In this document: piece by piece, positions 4,799 to 35,546 of the stretch
How the letters are laid out: each line of letters opens with the position of its first letter
Position numbering within the stretch: the stretch's first letter is position 1
Source: Nostoc carneum NIES-2107
Lineage (GTDB): Bacteria > Cyanobacteriota > Cyanobacteriia > Cyanobacteriales > Nostocaceae
Length of the DNA: 64,000 bases
Direction of reading: 5' to 3'
Assembly: GCA_002368155.1 (NCBI GenBank)
Contig: AP018180.1
Span: 4,199,380 to 4,263,379 of the forward strand
Translations under genes and position numbers: made by a program
Notes under the pieces: generated by a model
Database searches by the model: none
What the model was told of the DNA's origin: nothing
Seen by the model: only the letters and a program-made list of their open reading frames with translations

Positions 4799-5836
4799 AT
4801 GGGAAACAACATTAAAATTGGTGTCATTGGCTATGGTTATTGGGGCCCGAATTTAGTCCGGAATTTTTCGGAAATCCCAGGTGCAGAAATCAAAACAGTC
4901 AGCGATTTTAAACCAGAGTTACTGGCAAAGGTACAGGCAAGATATCCCAAAATTAATGTAACAACAGATTGTCGCGATATCTTCACAGATCCGACGATTG
5001 ATGCGGTGGCGATCGCCACACCAGTCTCCACCCATTTTGATTTAGCTTTAGCTGCATTAAAAGCAGGAAAGCACGTACTGGTAGAAAAACCAATGACCGT
5101 TTCCTCTGAGCAAGCACTGCGTTTGATCGATGAGGCGGAAAAACGCAATTTGGTGCTAATGGTAGATCATACCTTTGTCTACACGGGTGCAGTCCGCAAG
5201 ATGCGGGACTTAGTGGTGACAAATGCTTTAGGTGATATTTATTACTACGACTCTGTACGCGTTAATTTAGGGCTATTCCAGCATGATGTGAACGTGATTT
5301 GGGATTTGGCAGTACATGACCTATCAATTATGAACTATGTTCTGCAATCTCAACCTTATGCAGTGTCAGCAACAGGGATCAGCCATGTTCCTGGCGAACC
5401 AGAAAATATCGCTTATTTAACTTTGTTTTTTGAAAGCAACTTAATAGCTCACATTCATGTCAACTGGCTCGCACCCGTGAAAGTGCGCCGGACTCTGATT
5501 GGTGGTTCTCAAAAGATGATCGTGTTTGATGATTTGGAACCTAGTGAAAAGCTGAAAGTATATGACAAAGGACTGATCCTCAACGGTCATACCGAAAGCG
5601 TTTACCAAATGCTGATTGGTTACCGCACAGGTGATATGTGGTCGCCGCAATTAGACATGACAGAAGCATTGCGAACCGAAGGCTTACATTTCATTAATTG
5701 TATCCAAACAGGCGATCGCCCCATTACTGATGGGGAAGCAGGACTGCGGGTAGTGAGAATTCTCGAAGCTGCAAGCCAGTCCCTCAAGCAACATGGCCGA
5801 TTAGTTGAACTAAATTTAGCAGAGGTGGCAGCGTGA
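4799..5836 (+). CDS. Gfo/Idh/MocA-family NAD-dependent sugar oxidoreductase (WbpB-like UDP-GlcNAcA 3-dehydrogenase)
   Basis: N-terminal Rossmann motif IGVIGYGYWGPN, the EKP motif (VLVEKPM), and overlap with the downstream DegT gene. Confidence 0.75.
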   Translation: MGNNIKIGVIGYGYWGPNLVRNFSEIPGAEIKTVSDFKPELLAKVQARYPKINVTTDCRDIFTDPTIDAVAIATPVSTHFDLALAALKAGKHVLVEKPMTVSSEQALRLIDEAEKRNLVLMVDHTFVYTGAVRKMRDLVVTNALGDIYYYDSVRVNLGLFQHDVNVIWDLAVHDLSIMNYVLQSQPYAVSATGISHVPGEPENIAYLTLFFESNLIAHIHVNWLAPVKVRRTLIGGSQKMIVFDDLEPSEKLKVYDKGLILNGHTESVYQMLIGYRTGDMWSPQLDMTEALRTEGLHFINCIQTGDRPITDGEAGLRVVRILEAASQSLKQHGRLVELNLAEVAA

Positions 5837-6942: not shown

Positions 6943-7949
6943 TGAGCGATCTCCGTCCTGGTTTAAACCCCCATCGCCTTGTTTCCTTGGTACGTCAAGC
7001 TGTTGAACGTTGTGATTTGCAATTGCAAAACGCGATCGTGCTGACAGAAGCCGCAACAGGGGCCTATGCTGTGACACCAATTGTAGCTGCGATCGCTGGA
7101 GCCGAGAAAGTCTTGGCGATCGCCAAGACTACGCGTTATGGTACCGTAGAACAAGTGCAAGCTCTGACAAAGCAACTCGCTGATATTGCAGGAGTGAGTG
7201 ATCGCATTGAATTTATCGCCGAAAAAACTCCAGATATTGTTGCTCAAGCGGATATCATTACCAACAGCGGCCATGTTCGCCCAATTAATGCAGAGATGAT
7301 TGGTTGGATGAAACCGAATGCTGTCATTGGCTTAATGTACGAAGCTTGGGAATTTAGACCAGAAGACTTGGATCTAATTACCTGTCGTCTCAAAGGTATC
7401 CAGGTTGTAGGGGTGAACGAACGTCATCCAGCAGTAGATGTCTTTTCCTTTTTGGGAATTATGGCAGTCAAACAATTGCTGGATGCGGGAATTTCCGTTT
7501 ATACCAGCAATATTTTATTGTTATGTGATAATCCTTTTCAGCGATTTATTGAGCGTGGTTTAGTCCAAGCTGGTGCCACAGTAGATACTGTTGATAGCCT
7601 TGCTACTGCATCTATTAATAAAAACTACGATGCCATTCTCGTAGCTTTACAACCACGCCTAGAACCAATATTAGGCGCTAAAGATGCGGCAATAATTGCT
7701 AAATATTGGCCAGGTACATTAGTTGCTCAATACTGGGGGGACATTGAGCGATCGGGTTTTGCTACTCAGAATATACCCGTATCTCCCGAAGTTGAGCCAA
7801 AACCAGGACACATGGGCATTCTCCCATCAGCCGTGGGGCCAGAACCAATTGTCCGCCTACAAACAGGCGGACTCAAAGCGGCTGAAGTAATTTGGCGGCA
7901 ATCTTTCCAACAGCAAACATCTGGTTTGGAATTTGTGCAACTCCTGTGA
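6942..7949 (+). CDS. Hypothetical protein (possibly Rossmann-like), conserved within the sugar-modification operon
   Basis: Long ORF translationally coupled to the flanking genes (start overlaps the upstream stop). No recognisable motif. Confidence 0.45.
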   Translation: MSDLRPGLNPHRLVSLVRQAVERCDLQLQNAIVLTEAATGAYAVTPIVAAIAGAEKVLAIAKTTRYGTVEQVQALTKQLADIAGVSDRIEFIAEKTPDIVAQADIITNSGHVRPINAEMIGWMKPNAVIGLMYEAWEFRPEDLDLITCRLKGIQVVGVNERHPAVDVFSFLGIMAVKQLLDAGISVYTSNILLLCDNPFQRFIERGLVQAGATVDTVDSLATASINKNYDAILVALQPRLEPILGAKDAAIIAKYWPGTLVAQYWGDIERSGFATQNIPVSPEVEPKPGHMGILPSAVGPEPIVRLQTGGLKAAEVIWRQSFQQQTSGLEFVQLL

Positions 7950-7960
7950 GGAATTAGTCA

Positions 7961-8929
7961 ATGGTCAATGTACTACTAATTGGTATAGGTACCACTACTT
8001 TAACTGCCTTAGAATCCTTAATTTCTCAGTGTCATGTTCAAGGAATAGTGCGTTATACCGATACAGATGATCCTGTAGCTAATTTAGCTCAAACAGCAAA
8101 TATTCCCATATTTACAGATACCTCACAAACAGCAATTAAAGCACTGATTCTCAAACTTCAGCCAGATTGCGTGGTAGTTTCATCCTATAATCAAATTCTG
8201 CCACCTGCACTGATTGAACTGTCTACATTCATCAATGTTCATTATTCTCCTTTACCCCAATATCGAGGACGGGCTAACGTTAATTGGGCAATTATTAATG
8301 ACGAACCTTGTGCGGCAATTAGCATTCATAAAATTTCACCTGATTTAGATGAAGGAAATATTTTATTTCAGCAGCTAATTCCCATTCACCGCAATGACAC
8401 AGTAGCTGATTTGTATGACAGATTAAATGAAATTCAGCAGCAAAATTTAGGCGAGACAGTTGTTAAAGCCTTTAATGCTTACCCAGGAGTTCAGCAAAAT
8501 AACGCCGAAGCTACTTATGGTTGTACTCGCCTACCTGAAGATGGTGAGATTAATTGGTCGGCTTCTACTAGAAGTATAGATTGTTTAATCCGATCATTAG
8601 TGGCACCTTTTCCTGGAGCTTATACATATTTTCAAGGACAGAAACTCACAGTTTGGCAAGCCATGCCTGTTGAGAATCCGCCTGTTTATGTAGGACGCAT
8701 ACCCGGTAGAATTATCAATAGATCTAAAACAGATGGTTTTGTTGATGTGTTGACTGGTAATGGAGTACTGAGAATTTTTGCAGTTCAATTGACTGGAAAA
8801 GAAAAAACAGCAGCAGCTAATATCATTAAGTCTGTGAAAACTACTTTAGGCTTACAAACATCTGATTTACTCAATCGTATTCAAATTTTAGAAGCACAAA
8901 TTAAGCAATTACAAGAAAATGCAAAATAA
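7961..8929 (+). CDS. Formyltransferase-family protein (Fmt/ArnA-N-like), probable sugar N-formyltransferase
   Basis: HYSPLPQYRGRANVNWAII motif (formyl-transferase catalytic region, cf. HxSLLPxxRG). Located between aminotransferase and epimerase genes. Confidence 0.7.
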   Translation: MVNVLLIGIGTTTLTALESLISQCHVQGIVRYTDTDDPVANLAQTANIPIFTDTSQTAIKALILKLQPDCVVVSSYNQILPPALIELSTFINVHYSPLPQYRGRANVNWAIINDEPCAAISIHKISPDLDEGNILFQQLIPIHRNDTVADLYDRLNEIQQQNLGETVVKAFNAYPGVQQNNAEATYGCTRLPEDGEINWSASTRSIDCLIRSLVAPFPGAYTYFQGQKLTVWQAMPVENPPVYVGRIPGRIINRSKTDGFVDVLTGNGVLRIFAVQLTGKEKTAAANIIKSVKTTLGLQTSDLLNRIQILEAQIKQLQENAK

Positions 8930-9893
8930 GCGCGTATTAATTACAGGTGGAGCAGGTTTAGTTGGCTCCCATATTGCCGATTTATTAGTTAAAGAAGGCG
9001 TATCGGAAATTATTATTCTAGATAACTTCACACGCGGACAAATTAAAAATTTGGCATGGGCAAAAGAACAAGGGCCCTTAGTAGTTGTAGAAGGCGATAT
9101 TAGAGACCAAAAACTGCTAGGCGAAGTTATGCAAGGCGTTGATGTTGTCTTTCATCAAGCAGCTATTCGCATTACTCAATGTGCAGAAGAACCACGTTTA
9201 GCTTTAGAAGTTTTAGCAGATGGCACTTTCAACGTATTGGAAGCCGCTGTTAAAGCAGGTGTAAAAAAGGTTGTAGCTGCTTCTTCTGCTTCTATTTACG
9301 GGATGGCAGAGGATTTCCCCACCACAGAATCCCATCACCCATACAATAACCGCACCCTTTATGGTGCAGCCAAGGTCTTTAATGAAGGCTTATTACGCAG
9401 TTTCCATGATATGTATGGGCTAGATTATGTAGGATTACGCTACTTCAATGTCTATGGCCCGCGGATGGATATATACGGTGTTTATACTGAAGTTTTGATT
9501 CGCTGGATGGAACGCATCGCTACAGGTCAACCACCATTAATTTTCGGTGATGGCAAACAAACAATGGACTTTGTATATATCGAAGACATTGCTAGAGCCA
9601 ATATTTTAGCAGCTAAAGCTGATGTTACTGATGAGGTGTTTAACATTGCCAGTGGTGTAGAAAGCAGTTTGAATGACCTCGCTTATAGTTTGGCGAAAGT
9701 CATGGGGTCAGATTTACAGCCAGAATACGGCCCAGAACGCAAAGTCAACCCTGTACAACGTCGATTAGCAGATGTGAGCAAAGCTCAAGAATTATTGGGT
9801 TTTGAAGCCCAAGTATCTTTAGAAGAAGGATTGCAACGGTTGGTAAGTTGGTGGCGCGAGCAAAAGCTGGCAAAGGAAGCAAGCAATGTCTGA
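8919..9893 (+). CDS. NAD-dependent epimerase/dehydratase (SDR family; UDP-sugar 4-epimerase or 4,6-dehydratase-like)
   Basis: TGGAGLVGSHI glycine-rich NAD motif and a YGAAK (YxxxK) catalytic motif. Confidence 0.75.
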   Translation: MQNKRVLITGGAGLVGSHIADLLVKEGVSEIIILDNFTRGQIKNLAWAKEQGPLVVVEGDIRDQKLLGEVMQGVDVVFHQAAIRITQCAEEPRLALEVLADGTFNVLEAAVKAGVKKVVAASSASIYGMAEDFPTTESHHPYNNRTLYGAAKVFNEGLLRSFHDMYGLDYVGLRYFNVYGPRMDIYGVYTEVLIRWMERIATGQPPLIFGDGKQTMDFVYIEDIARANILAAKADVTDEVFNIASGVESSLNDLAYSLAKVMGSDLQPEYGPERKVNPVQRRLADVSKAQELLGFEAQVSLEEGLQRLVSWWREQKLAKEASNV

Positions 9894-29635: not shown

Positions 29636-30259
29636 ATGATTATTGATCCTTCACAAATTGATCCTAGAAATAGCTACCAATTACTGATTGGCTCGATTGT
29701 TCCCCGGCCGATCGCTTGGGTGTCTACAATTGCTAGCGATGGTACGTTAAATCTTGCGCCTTTCAGTTTCTTTATGGGTGTGGCTGCAAACCCACCAACT
29801 TTAGCTATCTCTTGCGGTTCTCGTCGTGGGACAAAAAAAGATACCCTAGCGAATGTAGAGCAGTCAGGAGAATTAGTAGTCAATATTGTTGCAGAAGAAT
29901 TAGGCGATCGCATGAACCTCACTAGCGGTGAGTTTCCACCTGATGTTGATGAATTTCAAATTGCAGGGCTAACCCCTGCACCTTGCAAACGCGTGCGTGC
30001 GCCGCGAGTTGCTGAGTCACCAATTAATATTGAGTGTGTACTCAAACAAGTAGTTTATGTTGGTAATGAAGGTAGTGAATCGGGATTAATTATCGCTGAA
30101 GCAGTGATGTGGCACGTCCGCGGCGATTTACTTACACCTGAAAACACCATTGATATTCGCAAACTAAATGCGATCGGTCGTCTCTCGGGGAATTGGTATA
30201 CAAGCACTCACGATTTATATCAAATTACTCGTCCTGATACCCAGCAGCCTAAAACTTGA
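29636..30259 (+). CDS. Flavin reductase-like (FMN-binding split-barrel) domain protein
   Basis: SIVPRPIAWVST...DGTLNLAPFSFF motif typical of the flavin reductase family. Confidence 0.7.
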   Translation: MIIDPSQIDPRNSYQLLIGSIVPRPIAWVSTIASDGTLNLAPFSFFMGVAANPPTLAISCGSRRGTKKDTLANVEQSGELVVNIVAEELGDRMNLTSGEFPPDVDEFQIAGLTPAPCKRVRAPRVAESPINIECVLKQVVYVGNEGSESGLIIAEAVMWHVRGDLLTPENTIDIRKLNAIGRLSGNWYTSTHDLYQITRPDTQQPKT

Positions 30260-30435
30260 GCCACGCCGTACTTGGTATAAGTAATTATTCACTACCACCT
30301 GATAAATACTTGTGCTACATTAAGTAGTGGAATAGTAATACATAGCAAAGCTATGGTTCGGGTTCTGTATGCCCGTCTGGTGCGCCAAACTCTGGATTGA
30401 GCGTATACCGCCGAGCAATGCGTCACTAATCCACC

Positions 30436-30501
30436 GTTTGATTAGCTCAGTGGTAGAGCAGCCGAAGAGGTCGGACGTAGGTTCGAGTCCTACATCAAAC
30501 A
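30436..30501 (+). tRNA. tRNA-like pseudogene: intact acceptor/D/T arms but a truncated anticodon arm (4-bp stem, 5-nt loop) and almost no variable loop
   Basis: Folded by hand. Acceptor GTTTGAT/ATCAAAC, D-arm GCTC-AGTGGTA-GAGC, T-arm GTAGG-TTCGAGT-CCTAC. Only 16 nt between D and T arms, against 21-22 expected. No CCA encoded. Confidence 0.4.
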
Positions 30502-30504
30502 CCC

Positions 30505-30579
30505 AGGAAGTTAGCTCATTGGTAGAGCAATCGACTCATAATCGATGTGTTACAGGTTCGATTCCTGTACTTTCAACCA
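30505..30579 (+). tRNA. tRNA with anticodon CAT (Met elongator or Ile2-lysidine type). Encodes CCA. Position 1:72 is an A-A mismatch.
   Basis: Folded by hand. D-arm GCTC-ATTGGTA-GAGC; anticodon stem ATCGA/TCGAT with loop CTCATAA; T-arm ACAGG-TTCGATT-CCTGT; acceptor AGGAAGT/ACTTTCA; discriminator A; CCA. Confidence 0.55.
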
Positions 30580-30604
30580 CCCTGTCTGGGTCAAAAGACA
30601 AATT

Positions 30605-30678
30605 TGCGGAATAGAGCAGCGGTAGCTCGTTGGAATTAGTATCCAAAGATCAGTGGTTCAAATCCACTTTCTGCCCCA
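30605..30678 (+). tRNA. Unusual tRNA-like gene: class-I (short variable arm) structure with anticodon UAG, T at position 37, and a T-C mismatch at 1:72
   Basis: Folded by hand. D-arm GAGC-AGCGGTA-GCTC; anticodon stem TTGGA/TCCAA with loop ATTAGTA; T-arm AGTGG-TTCAAAT-CCACT; acceptor TGCGGAA/TTCTGCC. Flanked by direct repeats GTCYGGGTCAAAAGACA. Confidence 0.4.
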
Positions 30679-31225
30679 AAAACCCCGTCCGGGTCAAAAG
30701 ACACTACCCTGTCACGGTAGCCCATGTAACTTAATGCAAAACTCTGCGGTGTAGGTGCTTACTACTAGCGATCGCTCTGCGATCCGAAGTAGTAACAGTG
30801 AAGGAGCTAGAGCAAATGTTCTCTCCCTAACTTGAGTATGTCCCTTCCTTTGTTACATCTGGTTTCTCTAGGGAGATTCTGGAATTGGCAAGGAGAACGG
30901 CGTATCTGAGCGCTGTTTTTTCTAGGTTACCTTAGGGTAATTTAGGGAATTTAGCAGTTCTCTTAATCCAGTTTTGGAGATGCTATTTGCCCGCAAATGA
31001 ACTGTAAACACCTACATTTGCAGAGTTTTAAAATATAATGTAGTATATGTAATACAAAACAATTAAGCTTATAACTGACTGAAGTAGGTAATGTAACACA
31101 AAAGTATTTTTCTCTTGGCTTTACAAAAAATTAGCTCAACGAAAATAGAGGGTAAATTTTCTCAGCCAAAGTTATAAATATTGTTATCAAACCTGCTGCG
31201 GCAGCTATGACTACCTCAATTAACT

Positions 31226-32764
31226 ATGCAATTTTCTATGTGGAAGACTTTCTATATCAAACCTAATGAAATTGGTATTTTATATCATCGTAGTGATTTT
31301 AAAAGAATCTTACAGCCTGGTACCCATACTTATTTAGGTTGGCATTGGCAAGTAAAAACCTTTGACCTGAATCAACCAGAAGCTAATATTAATAACTTAG
31401 AATTGTTACTTAGAAATCACAGTTCACAATTACAGGAATATTTATTAGTAGTAAGAACTGCATTTAATCAAGTTGCTTTAGTACGCGTGGGGCAAACTTG
31501 GGTGAGCGTTCTACCCAATCAACTGCGGGCTTTTTGGCGTGGTTTTATTGAAGTAGAATCTCATATCTTCAACTTGGATGAAAGTTTAGAATTGCCTGCT
31601 GAATTTGTACAGCAAGTACGCCTAACTACGATCAATGGGCTAAAAAAGTTCATAATTTCTGAGTATGAAATTGGGTTGCTGTATGAGCAAAATAACTTTG
31701 TGCGTCCTTTAGAACCAGGAGATTATGCTTTTTGGACTGTGAATCGAGATGTTTCGGTTCGCTCTTTAAGTCGAATTGTTCCTAATCCTAGCTTTCCTTT
31801 AGAAGATGTACTAATCGAAAAACATCCTGAATTTGTAGCGGCTTACTGCGAGATAGTACAATTACAGAACCAGCAAGTAGCAATTGTACGCTATCAAGGA
31901 AAAGTAATTGCTATTTTAGCACCATGCGATCGCAAACTTTTCTGGCAAGGTGTTGCAGTAGAAGTGATTGACATCAGCACCGATGCGAAGTTGCCTTCTC
32001 GCTTAGTTGCAGAGTTAGTAGCAGGTTTACCAGAGGCTTTATCTTTGAGCCGCAATAGTTTGCATATTTGCGATGTACCAACACAGCACGTAGGCTTACT
32101 GTATATTGATCAAGAATTTCAAACTCAACTCCAGCCTGGAAAGCACGCATGGTGGGTATTTGGGCGTTCTTGGCAAACGCAAGTCTTTGATTTGCGTCAG
32201 CAAACTCTCGAAGTATCTGGCCAAGATATCCTTTCTAAGGATAAAGTGCCTTTGCGTTTAAACTTAACTGCTGGTTATCGCATTCTCGACCCCCTGAGAG
32301 CCAAAAACGCTTTAGTAGATATTACTGGCTACTTATACAAAGAGTTACAGTTTGCTTTGCGTGGCGCAGTTGGGGAAAAAACTCTGGATGCGTTGCTAGA
32401 GGATAAAGGTGCAATTGATAGAAGCATCTCTGAATATATTCGCCAGAAAACCGCAGACTATGGAATAGAAGTAGATTCCGTAGGGGTGAAAGATATTATT
32501 CTTCCTGGTGAAATCAAGACGATTTTGAGCAAGGTAGTAGAAGCGGAAAAAGCTGCTCAAGCTAACGTAGTTCGTCGTCGTGAAGAAACTGCTGCTACTC
32601 GCAGTATGTTGAATACTGCCAAGGTAATGGAAGATAATCCCGTAGCGTTGCGGTTGAAGGAATTGGAAGTACTAGAGCGAATTGCTGAGAAAATTGAAAA
32701 AATTCAAGTTAATGGCAGTTTGGATAGTATTTTAACTGAGCTAATTCGGATTAATAGGGAGTAG
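31226..32764 (+). CDS. SPFH/band-7 (stomatin/slipin-like) protein with three tandem N-terminal beta-modules
   Basis: C-terminal ~200 aa shows the SPFH signature (GIEVDSVGVKDIILPGEIK...AEKAAQANVVRRREE, coiled-coil tail). The N-terminus repeats (QPGTHTYLGWHWQVKTFDL / EPGDYAFWTVNRDVSVRSL / QPGKHAWWVFGRSWQTQVFDL). Confidence 0.7.
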   Translation: MQFSMWKTFYIKPNEIGILYHRSDFKRILQPGTHTYLGWHWQVKTFDLNQPEANINNLELLLRNHSSQLQEYLLVVRTAFNQVALVRVGQTWVSVLPNQLRAFWRGFIEVESHIFNLDESLELPAEFVQQVRLTTINGLKKFIISEYEIGLLYEQNNFVRPLEPGDYAFWTVNRDVSVRSLSRIVPNPSFPLEDVLIEKHPEFVAAYCEIVQLQNQQVAIVRYQGKVIAILAPCDRKLFWQGVAVEVIDISTDAKLPSRLVAELVAGLPEALSLSRNSLHICDVPTQHVGLLYIDQEFQTQLQPGKHAWWVFGRSWQTQVFDLRQQTLEVSGQDILSKDKVPLRLNLTAGYRILDPLRAKNALVDITGYLYKELQFALRGAVGEKTLDALLEDKGAIDRSISEYIRQKTADYGIEVDSVGVKDIILPGEIKTILSKVVEAEKAAQANVVRRREETAATRSMLNTAKVMEDNPVALRLKELEVLERIAEKIEKIQVNGSLDSILTELIRINRE

Positions 32765-34521: not shown

Positions 34522-35013
34522 ATGTGGATGCAATTATTAGAAGATTTTATCAGACAAAGCTTGGATAAACGTGAAATTACACGGGCAATGGCAGTCAAAA
34601 TGCTGCTGTGTGGATATAAACATAAAGAGATAATGCCAATATTGGGGGTTTCATCAGGCTTTATAAGTACATGGAAAAAAGCATTTTTTCAAAACGGAGT
34701 TGAGGGTTTAAAGTTAGCACATAAAGGCAGCAAGGGATTTTTGGATGCACAACAACATCGGTCTGTCATTGAATGGTTGCAAACCAAGGAGCAATGGACT
34801 CTTAATGAGTTGGAGTATCAAATTGCATCTAAGTATGGAGTGATATTTGAGTCCAAACAAAGCTACTATGATTTGTTTAAAGAAGCACGTATTAGTTGGA
34901 AGAAAGCTCAAGCTAATAATCCAAAGCATGATCCAGAATTAGTTGCCTTAAAAAAAAAGAAATTAGTAAATTGTTGGAGACGCGAAGAGCCGAAATCGAG
35001 TCTGGCAAACTAG
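34522..35013 (+). CDS. IS630-family transposase, N-terminal HTH/DNA-binding part (orfA)
   Basis: Helix-turn-helix-like N-terminus. Ends just after the slippery run AAAAAAAAAG. Confidence 0.6.
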   Translation: MWMQLLEDFIRQSLDKREITRAMAVKMLLCGYKHKEIMPILGVSSGFISTWKKAFFQNGVEGLKLAHKGSKGFLDAQQHRSVIEWLQTKEQWTLNELEYQIASKYGVIFESKQSYYDLFKEARISWKKAQANNPKHDPELVALKKKKLVNCWRREEPKSSLAN

Positions 35014-35546
35014 TTGTGTTCATGGTTGATGAATGCCATTTACTCTGGGGAGATATCTGTGGATATATCTGGGGTCAAATGAGTGAGCGCATATTAATTC
35101 CAGTTGTCAATGCTCGTGATAAACAAACATACTTTGGTGCATTAGACTATAAAACAAAGGAATTTCTCACCTATTCTGCCAATAAAGGTAACTCGGAAAA
35201 CACAATTAATTTCTTGGATTATCTTCGTTCACAACGCCCTGGTGCAAAACTTTTAATCATTTGGGATGGAGCTAGTTATCATCGGTCGCAAAAAATCAAA
35301 GATTATTTAGACTCTTTGAATGCGGATTTAGAAAAAGAAGAATGGGTGATAACTTGTGAAAGATTTGCCCCACATGCACCCCAACAAAATCCTGTAGAAG
35401 ATATTTGGTTACAAGGAAAAAGACTGATTCGAGAGTTTTATTTTCTCTGTCATTCTTTTTCTGTTGTTAAGGCCTTATTTGAGTTGTCAGTGCATGGTCA
35501 AATTTTTAACTTCCCTAAGCTTCATGAATATGGTGTTTTCTCATGA
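34971..35546 (+). CDS. IS630-family transposase, DDE catalytic part (orfB), probably expressed by programmed frameshift from orfA
   Basis: DDE_3-like segments (VFMVDECHL, LIIWDGASYHRS, APHAPQQNPVEDIW). The frame is reachable by a -1 shift in the A9 run. Confidence 0.6.
   Translation: MLETRRAEIESGKLVVFMVDECHLLWGDICGYIWGQMSERILIPVVNARDKQTYFGALDYKTKEFLTYSANKGNSENTINFLDYLRSQRPGAKLLIIWDGASYHRSQKIKDYLDSLNADLEKEEWVITCERFAPHAPQQNPVEDIWLQGKRLIREFYFLCHSFSVVKALFELSVHGQIFNFPKLHEYGVFS

Follow-up and report, generated by a model that had tools for sequence, protein, structure and literature searches.

Three tandem tRNA-like modules of a Nostoc genome probably belong to a conserved cassette that is tied to a retron-type reverse transcriptase and an SPFH protein in related cyanobacteria

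Three tRNA-like sequences follow each other within less than 250 nucleotides in a 64-kb stretch of the Nostoc carneum NIES-2107 genome (contig AP018180.1; the entire stretch is called the window below). What are they? A preliminary description, prepared from the letters of the window, had offered several readings, i.e. a small cyanobacterial array of redundant or aberrant tRNA genes, elements made mobile by flanking direct repeats, and tRNA-derived elements or tRNA-like regulatory RNAs. Here we compared the locus with its counterparts in other genomes. In all probability the trio belongs to a conserved cassette which in relatives is linked to a retron-type reverse transcriptase (RT) and to a protein of the SPFH/Band_7 family. 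That the three sequences are tRNA-derived structural and processing modules of a retron-like non-coding RNA (ncRNA) precursor, and not decoders, is a combined statement to which we give even chances.

The Rfam tRNA model (RF00005) identified three adjacent matches, termed t1, t2 and t3, on the + strand, all far above the gathering score of 29 bits (coordinates and scores of all features are in Table 1). The proposal of three consecutive cloverleaves was thus upheld, and covariance scores far below tRNA thresholds, which the preliminary description had named as evidence against it, were not obtained for any module. The anatomy which it had derived by hand folding agreed with the Rfam alignment in every module. 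The t1 module has complete acceptor, D and T arms and a shortened variable region. Its anticodon arm, CCGA-AGAGG-TCGG, consists of a 4-bp stem and a 5-nt loop (5 nt in the alignment versus 11 in the Rfam model). The t2 module is a canonical cloverleaf with the loop CUCAUAA (anticodon CAU), an A1.A72 mismatch, discriminator A and an encoded CCA. In t3 the loop AUUAGUA presents the anticodon UAG with U37; the variable loop has 5 nt and a U1.C72 mismatch is present. When a 7-nt loop, U33 and a purine at position 37 are taken as marks of a decoding tRNA only t2 conforms, because t1 has a 5-nt loop and t3 has U37. ARAGORN called t2 and t3 but not t1. Beyond the trio, neither ARAGORN nor the Rfam tRNA model found a tRNA in the window. 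Two identities were considered for t2 and dropped: a G3.U70 alanine identity, as A3-U70 is present in Argonema and others, and an initiator identity from a C1.A72 mismatch, as the anticodon stem is without three G-C pairs.

The trio is not isolated. It is part of a conserved non-coding unit of ~0.75 kb (about 30310-31060) which takes up the whole intergenic region and is present in ~30 cyanobacterial loci. This larger unit, and its tie to RT genes in relatives, had been missed in the preliminary description. The set of loci was assembled from two pattern scans and from loci reached through RT homologues. A 19-mer from the upstream part had matches in 7 genomes (Tolypothrix tenuis PCC 7101, Nostoc linckia, Nostoc sp. 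T09, Argonema antarcticum, an uncultured cyanobacterial metagenome-assembled genome (MAG), Aulosira and Calothrix NIES-2100), and a 21-mer from the downstream part retrieved 19 metagenome contigs. The T. tenuis locus is 97% identical to the window over 1.1 kb. In Aulosira sp. DedQUE10 and Calothrix sp. NIES-2100 the syntenic intergenic regions are conserved over their full length, several hundred bases on each side of the modules. The order of parts is a promoter-like block, a ~100-nt 5' domain, one to three cloverleaves, the trailer motif GTCCGGGTCAAAAGACA, a small hairpin and a ~290-nt 3' domain. In Nostoc sp. T09 and Argonema the unit is present twice. The trio is found in copy A; copy B has only one cloverleaf, in altered form. 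Both copies adjoin an RT gene.

Both domains that enclose the modules are structured RNAs according to covariation. In 15 homologues of the 5' domain 13 consensus pairs were found, four of them with compensatory changes (CG/UA/UG at the base of the hairpin; UA to CG in helix 2). The 3' domain is a rod in which the ends a1 and a2 form a closing stem of 19-20 bp. Its minimum free energy is -115 kcal/mol (z = -7.53 versus 200 dinucleotide shuffles). The a1/a2 stem covaries in 27 homologues, e.g. with CG:11 UA:10 UG:5 at one pair and AU:10 GC:7 GU:5 at another, and the inner helix and several hairpins are also supported in homologues. Neither domain is represented by a family in Rfam 15. When the whole unit and the Argonema double unit were searched at permissive E-values, tRNA was the only Rfam match; YrlA, Plastid-ycf2 and SprX stayed far below threshold. 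A BLAST search with 30380-30760 against plasmids and phages returned generic tRNA similarity (tRNA-Val/Ile pairs) and no cassette, and the 3' domain motif was absent from viral contigs. A T-box-like contact of a UGGU in the 5' domain with NCCA was considered and discarded since in the alignments the discriminator varies (A, C, G) while UGGU is constant. Two further observations concern the 3' domain. The top of its hairpin 1 is occupied by a HIP1 octamer, GCGATCGC, at 30770-30777; orthologues have unrelated yet pairing sequences there. One site of the domain carries insertions, a GC-rich one of ~90 nt in Aulosira (L002, about 2865-2955) and one of ~35 nt in copy B of Nostoc T09; this site appears to be tolerant, like the terminal loop of a long hairpin.

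The promoter-like block at the start of the unit is conserved in all unit copies in the alignments, and the 17-nt spacer between its boxes holds the palindrome CTACATTAAGTAG. A strict sigma-70 scan did not flag it; it may nonetheless serve as a promoter. A second promoter-like motif is kept after a2 wherever Band_7 or another unit comes next. The motifs before the 5' domain, CTACATTAAGTAGTGGAATAGTAATAC, and before Band_7, ATAATGTAGTATATGTAATAC, are related, and the first contains the palindrome CTAC-N5-GTAG. Possibly this is an operator or promoter element common to the unit and its neighbour.

How are the cloverleaves themselves conserved? A covariance model of our own, built from 14 cloverleaves, detected 67 modules in the cassette loci, 55 of which are distinct, and none elsewhere in those loci. 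In the 55 distinct modules 96.0% of the cloverleaf cells are paired compared with 74% for shuffled and 34-46% for slid partners. Changes on both sides were seen in 17 of 21 cloverleaf pairs, part of which stems from pooling three paralogous classes. The constraint is unevenly distributed. In t1 (19 distinct orthologues) the mean entropy is 0.11 bit in the acceptor, 0.04 in the D stem and 0.34 in the T arm, and 1.61 bit in the anticodon loop, the most variable part of the module. The corresponding values for t3 (7 distinct orthologues) are 0.06, 0.00, 0.00 and 1.21 bit. The anticodon loop has 0.33 bit in t2 and 0.14 bit in copy B, where the D and T loops have about 0.95 bit. In most lineages t1 consists of a conserved CCGA/UCGG stem round 5-6 unconstrained nucleotides in which U33 is not conserved; the arm in the window is shorter still.

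The anticodons drift. Among t1 orthologues they are truncated, CAT, ATG, GCG, CTA, CCA, AAG, CGA, GTA, GCA or TAT; among t3 orthologues TAG, TGG, AAT and 6-nt loops were found. Most t2 modules have CAT, and CUCAUAA is kept in most units, yet AAT, GAT, TAT, CAG and TCT also occur. An anticodon conserved between orthologues, as expected of a decoding tRNA, is therefore lacking, with more than ten triplets or a truncated loop in t1 and with variation in t3 and t2. Two of the three module differences between the window and its two closest relatives are in anticodons: the CAT of t2 in the window corresponds to AAT in the 97%-identical T. tenuis locus, and the TAG of t3 to TGG in N. linckia. The body of t3 is invariant across orders (Nostocales to Oculatellaceae), and t3 is missing from many units. 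The 1-72 mismatches of t2 and t3 are conserved. Despite variation at N72 and N73, 17 of 18 distinct variants of t2 retain the CCA, after which the invariant trailer comes. In copy B the single cloverleaf is held by compensatory changes, the consensus of the T and D loops is lost and a conserved non-tRNA loop, UGUAUCG, is present. These patterns indicate that in t1 and t3 only the tRNA body is under selection. In t2 selection preserves an almost complete tRNA(CAU)-like molecule with a CCA end, and in copy B a four-way junction with a specific loop. In Aulosira DedQUE10 the anticodon arm of t1 is identical to that of t2, which suggests gene conversion; a t1 with a t2-type arm is also present in a second unit family (L025, L026, L032, L038). 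A kissing interaction of the t1 loop was rejected because it has no covarying complement in its own unit (4.6 nt versus 4.4 nt in mismatched units). Two insertions were noted. In Calothrix sp. NIES-2100 (L008, about 4936-4965) a hairpin-forming sequence of 30 nt is inserted in the T loop of t2, which still scores 68.6 bits with a local model. In an Oculatellaceae MAG (L043, 6838-9386) a group II intron with an open reading frame (ORF) at 7552-9228 (RVT_N, RVT_1, GIIM, HNH) lies between t1 and t2 of unit A; the remainder of the unit and Band_7 are intact downstream.

The direct repeats on either side of t3 had been interpreted as a possible means of mobility. Their existence was confirmed: GTCYGGGTCAAAAGACA occurs exactly twice in the 64 kb, with 0.03 occurrences expected from shuffles, though the positions originally given were off by 1-2 nt. 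The repeat extends to 27 nt at 85% identity. The copies are nearly invariant from Nostoc to Argonema and are located behind the CCA of t2 and behind that of t3; units without t3 have exactly one copy. Because the motif stands behind CCA in every lineage and remains as one copy in t3-less loci we consider it as a conserved 3' trailer and not as a transposition footprint. No integrase or transposase is linked to the unit. Mobility via the repeats is thus not substantiated, and the repeats would fit a route for loss or gain of t3 rather than a transposition scar. A hairpin within the 17-nt repeat was also considered, but the TGTCT/AGACA pairing of copy 1 is broken in copy 2.

The connection with retrons comes from the homologous loci. 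An RT gene adjoins the unit in at least 12 of them (L012, L015, L024, L026/L031, L027, L029, L033, L035, L038, L041, L042, L043; L041 is Nostoc PCC 7107 and L042 is Aulosira FACHB-615). The RTs of Nostoc T09 (L012) and Argonema (L015) match the PADLOC model RT_XIII at 1.4e-161 and 2.2e-200, have retron families as their best NCBIfam matches, and contain NAxxH (NAQPH/NATPH) and VTG, the motifs by which retron RTs are defined (PMC7736814). On these grounds both RTs are placed in the retron clade. Three arrangements were distinguished. In the first, copy A, RT, copy B and Band_7 follow each other (T09, Nostoc PCC 7107, L026/L031, L029); Aulosira FACHB-615 has the same A, RT, B order, with Band_7 not within the stretch fetched. 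Here the RT starts 0-60 nt downstream of the end of a2, so that the parts have the classical msr-msd-ret order. In the second, RT is followed by B, A, optionally OmdA and usually Band_7 (Argonema, L024, L035, L043); L024 and L035 have OmdA without Band_7 after it. The third is RT-less and consists of A, optionally OmdA, and Band_7 (the window, T. tenuis, N. linckia, Aulosira DedQUE10, Calothrix NIES-2100 and several metagenome contigs). The RTs of the homologous loci also include a short form in which the N-terminal extension is missing. Members of the long form (~466 aa) from Nostocales, Oscillatoriales and unicellular cyanobacteria share 73-89% identity, an unusual degree of conservation for a retron RT. 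The long RT stands beside WGR/HEAT genes in L016 and L020, as in canonical type XIII; L016 encodes a WGR-HEAT protein, a 546-aa protein, an ncRNA of 255 nt with a 14-bp closing stem, and the RT.

The window thus has an RT-less derivative in which unit A is directly followed by Band_7. Complementary a1/a2 ends enclosing hairpins, one mark of a retron, are present here; the other, an adjacent RT with NAxxH and VTG, is seen in homologous loci only. How could the RT have been lost? The 5' and 3' domains of copy A recur in copy B as direct repeats; if the two copies recombined, RT and B would be excised and A would come to stand before Band_7. Most likely the form in the window arose in this way. 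An example is offered by L040 (A, Band_7) and L026/L031 on metagenome contigs (NNBV/NNBU). In L040, t1 and t2 are identical to those of unit A of L026 (A, RT, B), but a2 is followed by the sequence that normally follows B in L031/L029. Apparently the repeated units recombined here not long ago and RT and B were deleted. Four genera have the RT-less arrangement behind the same flavin reductase gene. In eight loci which seem to be without an RT, 92 consensus pairs of the 3' domain are preserved, 13 of them via double changes. Such compensatory pairing argues that the RNA is still under selection without an RT in cis. A lone remnant was noted in the uncultured cyanobacterium MAG (L009, 5786-6010). 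It comprises the 5' domain, a t1-like module with a loop called TAT, and the broken start of t2, and is without 3' domain, RT and Band_7.

The Band_7 gene is located downstream of the cassette in about 20 loci. Residues 319-489 of its product match stomatin in a PDB profile search (E = 6e-23). The N-terminal 300 residues contain further partial SPFH-like repeats with three copies of an EIGxLYxxxxFxxxLxPG-like motif; the stomatin-like domain follows and then a long C-terminal helix, and by eye no membrane segment was recognized. Such a succession of repeats, SPFH domain and helix might be vault-protein-like. A single-sequence AlphaFold model was unusable (pLDDT 37). The protein matched no PADLOC model; from the gene order one may guess that it is a retron effector. 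At the other end of the unit the closest homologues of the flavin reductase place the organism in Nostocales. Elsewhere in the window, at 34522-35546, an IS630-like transposase is divided between ORFs of 163 aa and 191 aa which overlap; its gene may be frameshifted or make use of a programmed frameshift.

Table 1. Features of the tRNA-like unit and its neighbours. Positions refer to the window; both promoter-like segments and the small hairpin were read from the sequence.
Feature	Position	Strand	Remarks
Flavin reductase gene	29636-30259		Upstream flank of the intergenic region
Promoter-like segment	30310-30339	+	-35-like TTGTGC 30310-30315, 17-nt spacer, -10-like TAGTAA 30333-30338
5' domain	30340-30435	+	Structured RNA of ~100 nt; hairpin 30359-30375; helix 30378-30385 with 30401-30410
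tRNA-like module t1	30436-30501	+	Rfam tRNA 53.2 bits; own covariance model 55.1 bits
tRNA-like module t2	30505-30579	+	Rfam match 30505-30576, 62.9 bits; encoded CCA 30577-30579
Trailer motif, copy 1	30574-30600	+	Core GTCTGGGTCAAAAGACA, 30584-30600; directly 3' of the t2 CCA; position kept in all A-type units
tRNA-like module t3	30605-30677	+	Rfam match 30605-30676, 51.4 bits
Trailer motif, copy 2	30677-30703	+	Core GTCCGGGTCAAAAGACA, 30687-30703; directly 3' of t3
Small hairpin	30704-30720	+	CTACC-CTGTCAC-GGTAG; compensatory change CTACT/AGTAG in Argonema
3' domain	30738-31030	+	Rod-like RNA of retron msr/msd-like architecture (folding and covariation); a1 30740-30755 with a2 31011-31027; hairpin 1 30760-30795; helix 30831-30847/30895-30910; hairpin 30925-30942
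Second promoter-like motif	31036-31057	+	ATAATGTAGTATATGTAATAC; upstream of Band_7; related to 30316-30339
SPFH/Band_7 (stomatin-like) protein	31226-32764	+	512 aa; Pfam Band_7 E = 3e-32

Taken together, the unit may be the ncRNA partner of a cyanobacterial retron-like system which comprises a clade-XIII-type RT, one or two unit copies and the SPFH/Band_7 protein. For the part of the modules in it we propose the following with moderate confidence. The unit would be transcribed as a single precursor from the promoter-like site at about 30310-30338. RNase P would cut 5' of every cloverleaf, and 3' maturation would occur at the CCA and trailer. The products would be RNA of the 5' domain, RNAs of tRNA size and an msr/msd-like RNA whose ends are defined. 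Rather than decode, the modules would serve as punctuation marks or handles by means of the tRNA body, i.e. acceptor and T arms and the elbow. Recognition by RNase P, RNase Z or the CCA-adding enzyme would produce just such a constraint as is seen in t1 and t3, one that is independent of the anticodon. Multicopy single-stranded DNA (msDNA) would be templated by the 3' domain in relatives that have an RT. In the genome of the window the RNA would have to act without an RT in cis, either via an RT in trans or at the RNA level together with the SPFH protein.

Several observations weigh against this proposal. A tblastn search found no RT in the 64-kb window; hence the link to retrons rests on homologous loci. 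Band_7 is not downstream in L024, L035 and L042. In Argonema-type loci the unit is located downstream, not upstream, of the RT. Cloverleaves and sequence similarity to the unit are both absent from L016, L018 and L020, the canonical type XIII loci whose long RTs are most similar, so the cloverleaf unit is a specific variant and not a general requirement of type XIII retrons. Neither a branching G nor an msd boundary could be assigned from the sequence. Processing by RNase P and RNase Z, co-transcription and the templating of msDNA are inferred from the sequence and its comparison. Lastly, a signal that serves processing alone would need neither the CAU loop nor the CCA that are conserved in t2; both hint at a separate role for a tRNA-like product.

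Could the trio be a short operon of ordinary supernumerary genes, tRNA-Met/Ile(CAU), tRNA-Leu(UAG) and one pseudogene, which feeds translation like the Anabaena trn operon under translational stress? Extra cyanobacterial tRNA operons are documented and aminoacylated (PMC8421152), all three modules exceed the Rfam threshold, and t2 in particular looks the part: it is canonical, with a conserved CUCAUAA and an encoded CCA, it resembles phage and enterobacterial tRNA-Ile genes, and most of its variants (CAU, GAU, AAU, UAU) would read AUN codons. However, t1 is without a 7-nt anticodon loop here and without U33 in most other genomes, and the anticodons of t1 and t3 shift between orthologues and include a stop-reading CTA and 6-nt loops. 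In t3, U37 and a class I body are combined with a Leu anticodon. Conserved 1-72 mismatches in t2 and t3, a t2 anticodon that differs in a 97%-identical relative and an orthologue with a 30-nt T-loop insertion are equally awkward, and a plain tRNA operon leaves unexplained that 5' and 3' domains covary and travel with the modules. We therefore regard ordinary tRNA genes as unlikely. Retron islands are often found near tRNA genes. The modules might accordingly be functionless, decaying relics, tRNA genes beside a former retron island insertion which appear conserved only through the youth of the island or its horizontal spread. This would agree with the missing RT in the window, with the remnant in L009, which keeps only a 5' domain, t1 and a broken t2, with the frequent lack of t3, and with the insertions in t2 and the group II intron between t1 and t2. 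Decay is difficult to reconcile with 96% of pairs kept in 55 distinct sequences with many double changes, with a t3 body that is invariant from Nostocales to Oculatellaceae while neighbouring loop positions are saturated, and with copy B, which holds a four-arm cloverleaf by compensatory substitutions; CCA and trailer are invariant. The non-conserved flanks of the same loci are already unalignable, and neutral decay would have erased the stems as well. We thus consider relics to be quite improbable.

A functional role other than processing was also weighed. The modules might be tRNA mimics, either baits, decoys or sensors in a conflict with tRNA-directed enzymes of phage or host, or protein-binding handles of an RT/SPFH ribonucleoprotein. 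Variation confined to 4-5 loop nucleotides of t1 and t3 on a frozen body, the concentration of differences between the closest relatives in anticodons, and the conserved non-tRNA loop of copy B would suit such a role, and a retron-phage conflict which involves tRNAs is known for retron Ec78, according to a preprint (bioRxiv 10.1101/2023.03.15.532788). Yet loop variability is equally explained by absence of constraint, and the t1 loop has no covarying partner in the unit. Neither the Band_7 nor the flavin reductase protein matches PADLOC defence models, the cassette is absent from collections of phages, plasmids and viral contigs, and the long RT family appears to be vertically inherited and not island-like. 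Mimicry in this sense has a low probability in our view. Reverse transcription can be primed by tRNAs, as in retroviruses, or by a tRNA-like CCA end, as in the Mauriceville plasmid. In the cassette, the tRNA-like 3' ends could prime instead of, or besides, the 2'-OH priming of classical retrons; the conserved CCA encoded in t2, a CCA within one register in t3 and the linkage of the modules to RT would permit this. However, nowhere in the unit was a complement of at least 8 nt found, be it to the trailer motif or to the 3' end of any of the three modules, the RT is of the retron clade (NAxxH, VTG), and the a1/a2 geometry of the 3' domain is that of 2'-OH priming. A primer function is hardly credible.

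We return to the modules as parts of a retron-like ncRNA precursor. Of the original readings, tRNA-derived elements or tRNA-like regulatory RNAs come near to the comparative picture. A bolder version, which we put forward tentatively and would rather doubt than believe, makes the cassette a new subtype of retrons in filamentous cyanobacteria. Its components would be an RT, a soluble SPFH protein with multiple repeats, and one or two chimeric ncRNAs in which tRNA-shaped modules are joined to an msr/msd-like rod. Among the modules, t2 would mimic a tRNA(CAU) with a CCA end, and t1 and t3 would be anticodon-free tRNA bodies in the role of sensors, baits or protein handles; the RNA would remain functional after loss of the RT. 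A description of the cassette was not found in Rfam or in the literature searched on retrons with tRNA-like modules, on RT with SPFH in cyanobacteria and on cyanobacterial retron msDNA. To our knowledge, retron ncRNAs are currently thought to consist of the msr/msd fold alone. If the proposal is true, tRNA-shaped modules and an extra structured domain fused upstream would be a new ncRNA architecture in retrons, and one would suspect that tRNA-processing enzymes or proteins that recognize the tRNA body have a part in the maturation or function of retron RNA. A stomatin-like SPFH protein instead of the known type XIII accessories would lengthen the list of retron partners, and RT-less loci with compensatory changes point to a role at the RNA level which is independent of an RT in cis. 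For annotation this would mean that such 'tRNA genes' are not to be counted in the decoding set of a genome; automated callers name them Met, Leu, Ile, His, Arg or Pyl after the drifting loop.

How does the cassette compare with known systems? Type XIII retrons, i.e. clade 10, include Mx162, Mx65, Ne144 and Sa163 (Mestre et al., 2020, PMC7736814). Like these, the homologous loci have RTs that match RT_XIII best and contain NAxxH and VTG, and a long ncRNA (~290 nt) with complementary closing ends and internal hairpins whose 3' arm abuts the RT start; overall size and shape are similar to those of the canonical cyanobacterial ncRNA in L016. Unlike in type XIII retrons, ~400 nt of conserved structured RNA, the 5' domain and the modules, precede a1, and the unit is often present twice, flanking the RT, or, as in the window, stands without it. 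The accessories differ as well: Band_7, with or without OmdA, is found in place of the WH-SWIM (cluster 114) and HEAT/ARM (cluster 216) proteins of type XIII (Mestre et al., 2020, PMC7736814). The bacterial Y RNA YrlA (RF02553) is likewise an ncRNA with a tRNA-mimicking module and works within a ribonucleoprotein. Its Rfam match to the unit is at chance level (21.9 bits versus a gathering score of 69), no Ro/Rsr gene is nearby, and whereas the mimic of YrlA is split the modules are complete tRNA-sized cloverleaves. Plant mitochondrial t-elements and mascRNA at the 3' end of MALAT1 are cloverleaf or acceptor/T-arm mimics within a longer transcript. Their tRNA body is conserved, the anticodon is irrelevant, and they are thought to recruit RNase P and RNase Z to set the ends of the flanking RNA. 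The same pattern of constraint is displayed by t1 and t3, with a conserved acceptor, T arm and elbow, a dispensable anticodon arm and a longer conserved context. Different from these eukaryotic or organellar cases are the bacterial host, up to three tandem modules, a t2 with full CAU loop and CCA, and cleavage, which is putative here. With the long tRNA arrays of cyanobacteria the cassette has in common filamentous hosts, close genes on the same strand, and that some have an encoded CCA and some are aberrant. A tRNA array is defined by at least 20 tRNA genes at two or more per kb (Tran et al., 2015; PMC4758250). L-arrays contain up to 43 genes and supply aminoacylated tRNAs (Santamaria-Gomez et al., 2021, PMC8421152); in the trn operon of Anabaena PCC 7120 23 of 26 tRNAs are aminoacylated, and arrays of 20-43 genes spread by horizontal gene transfer (PMC8421152, PMC10272220, PMC4758250). 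The small array that had been suggested for the trio is not in accord with this, as only three modules are present in the 64-kb window and one to three per unit elsewhere, orthologous anticodons drift, and t1 is mostly without a usable anticodon loop. In contrast to the genes of an array, these modules have a fixed place between two structured RNA domains and are tied to an RT and an SPFH protein.

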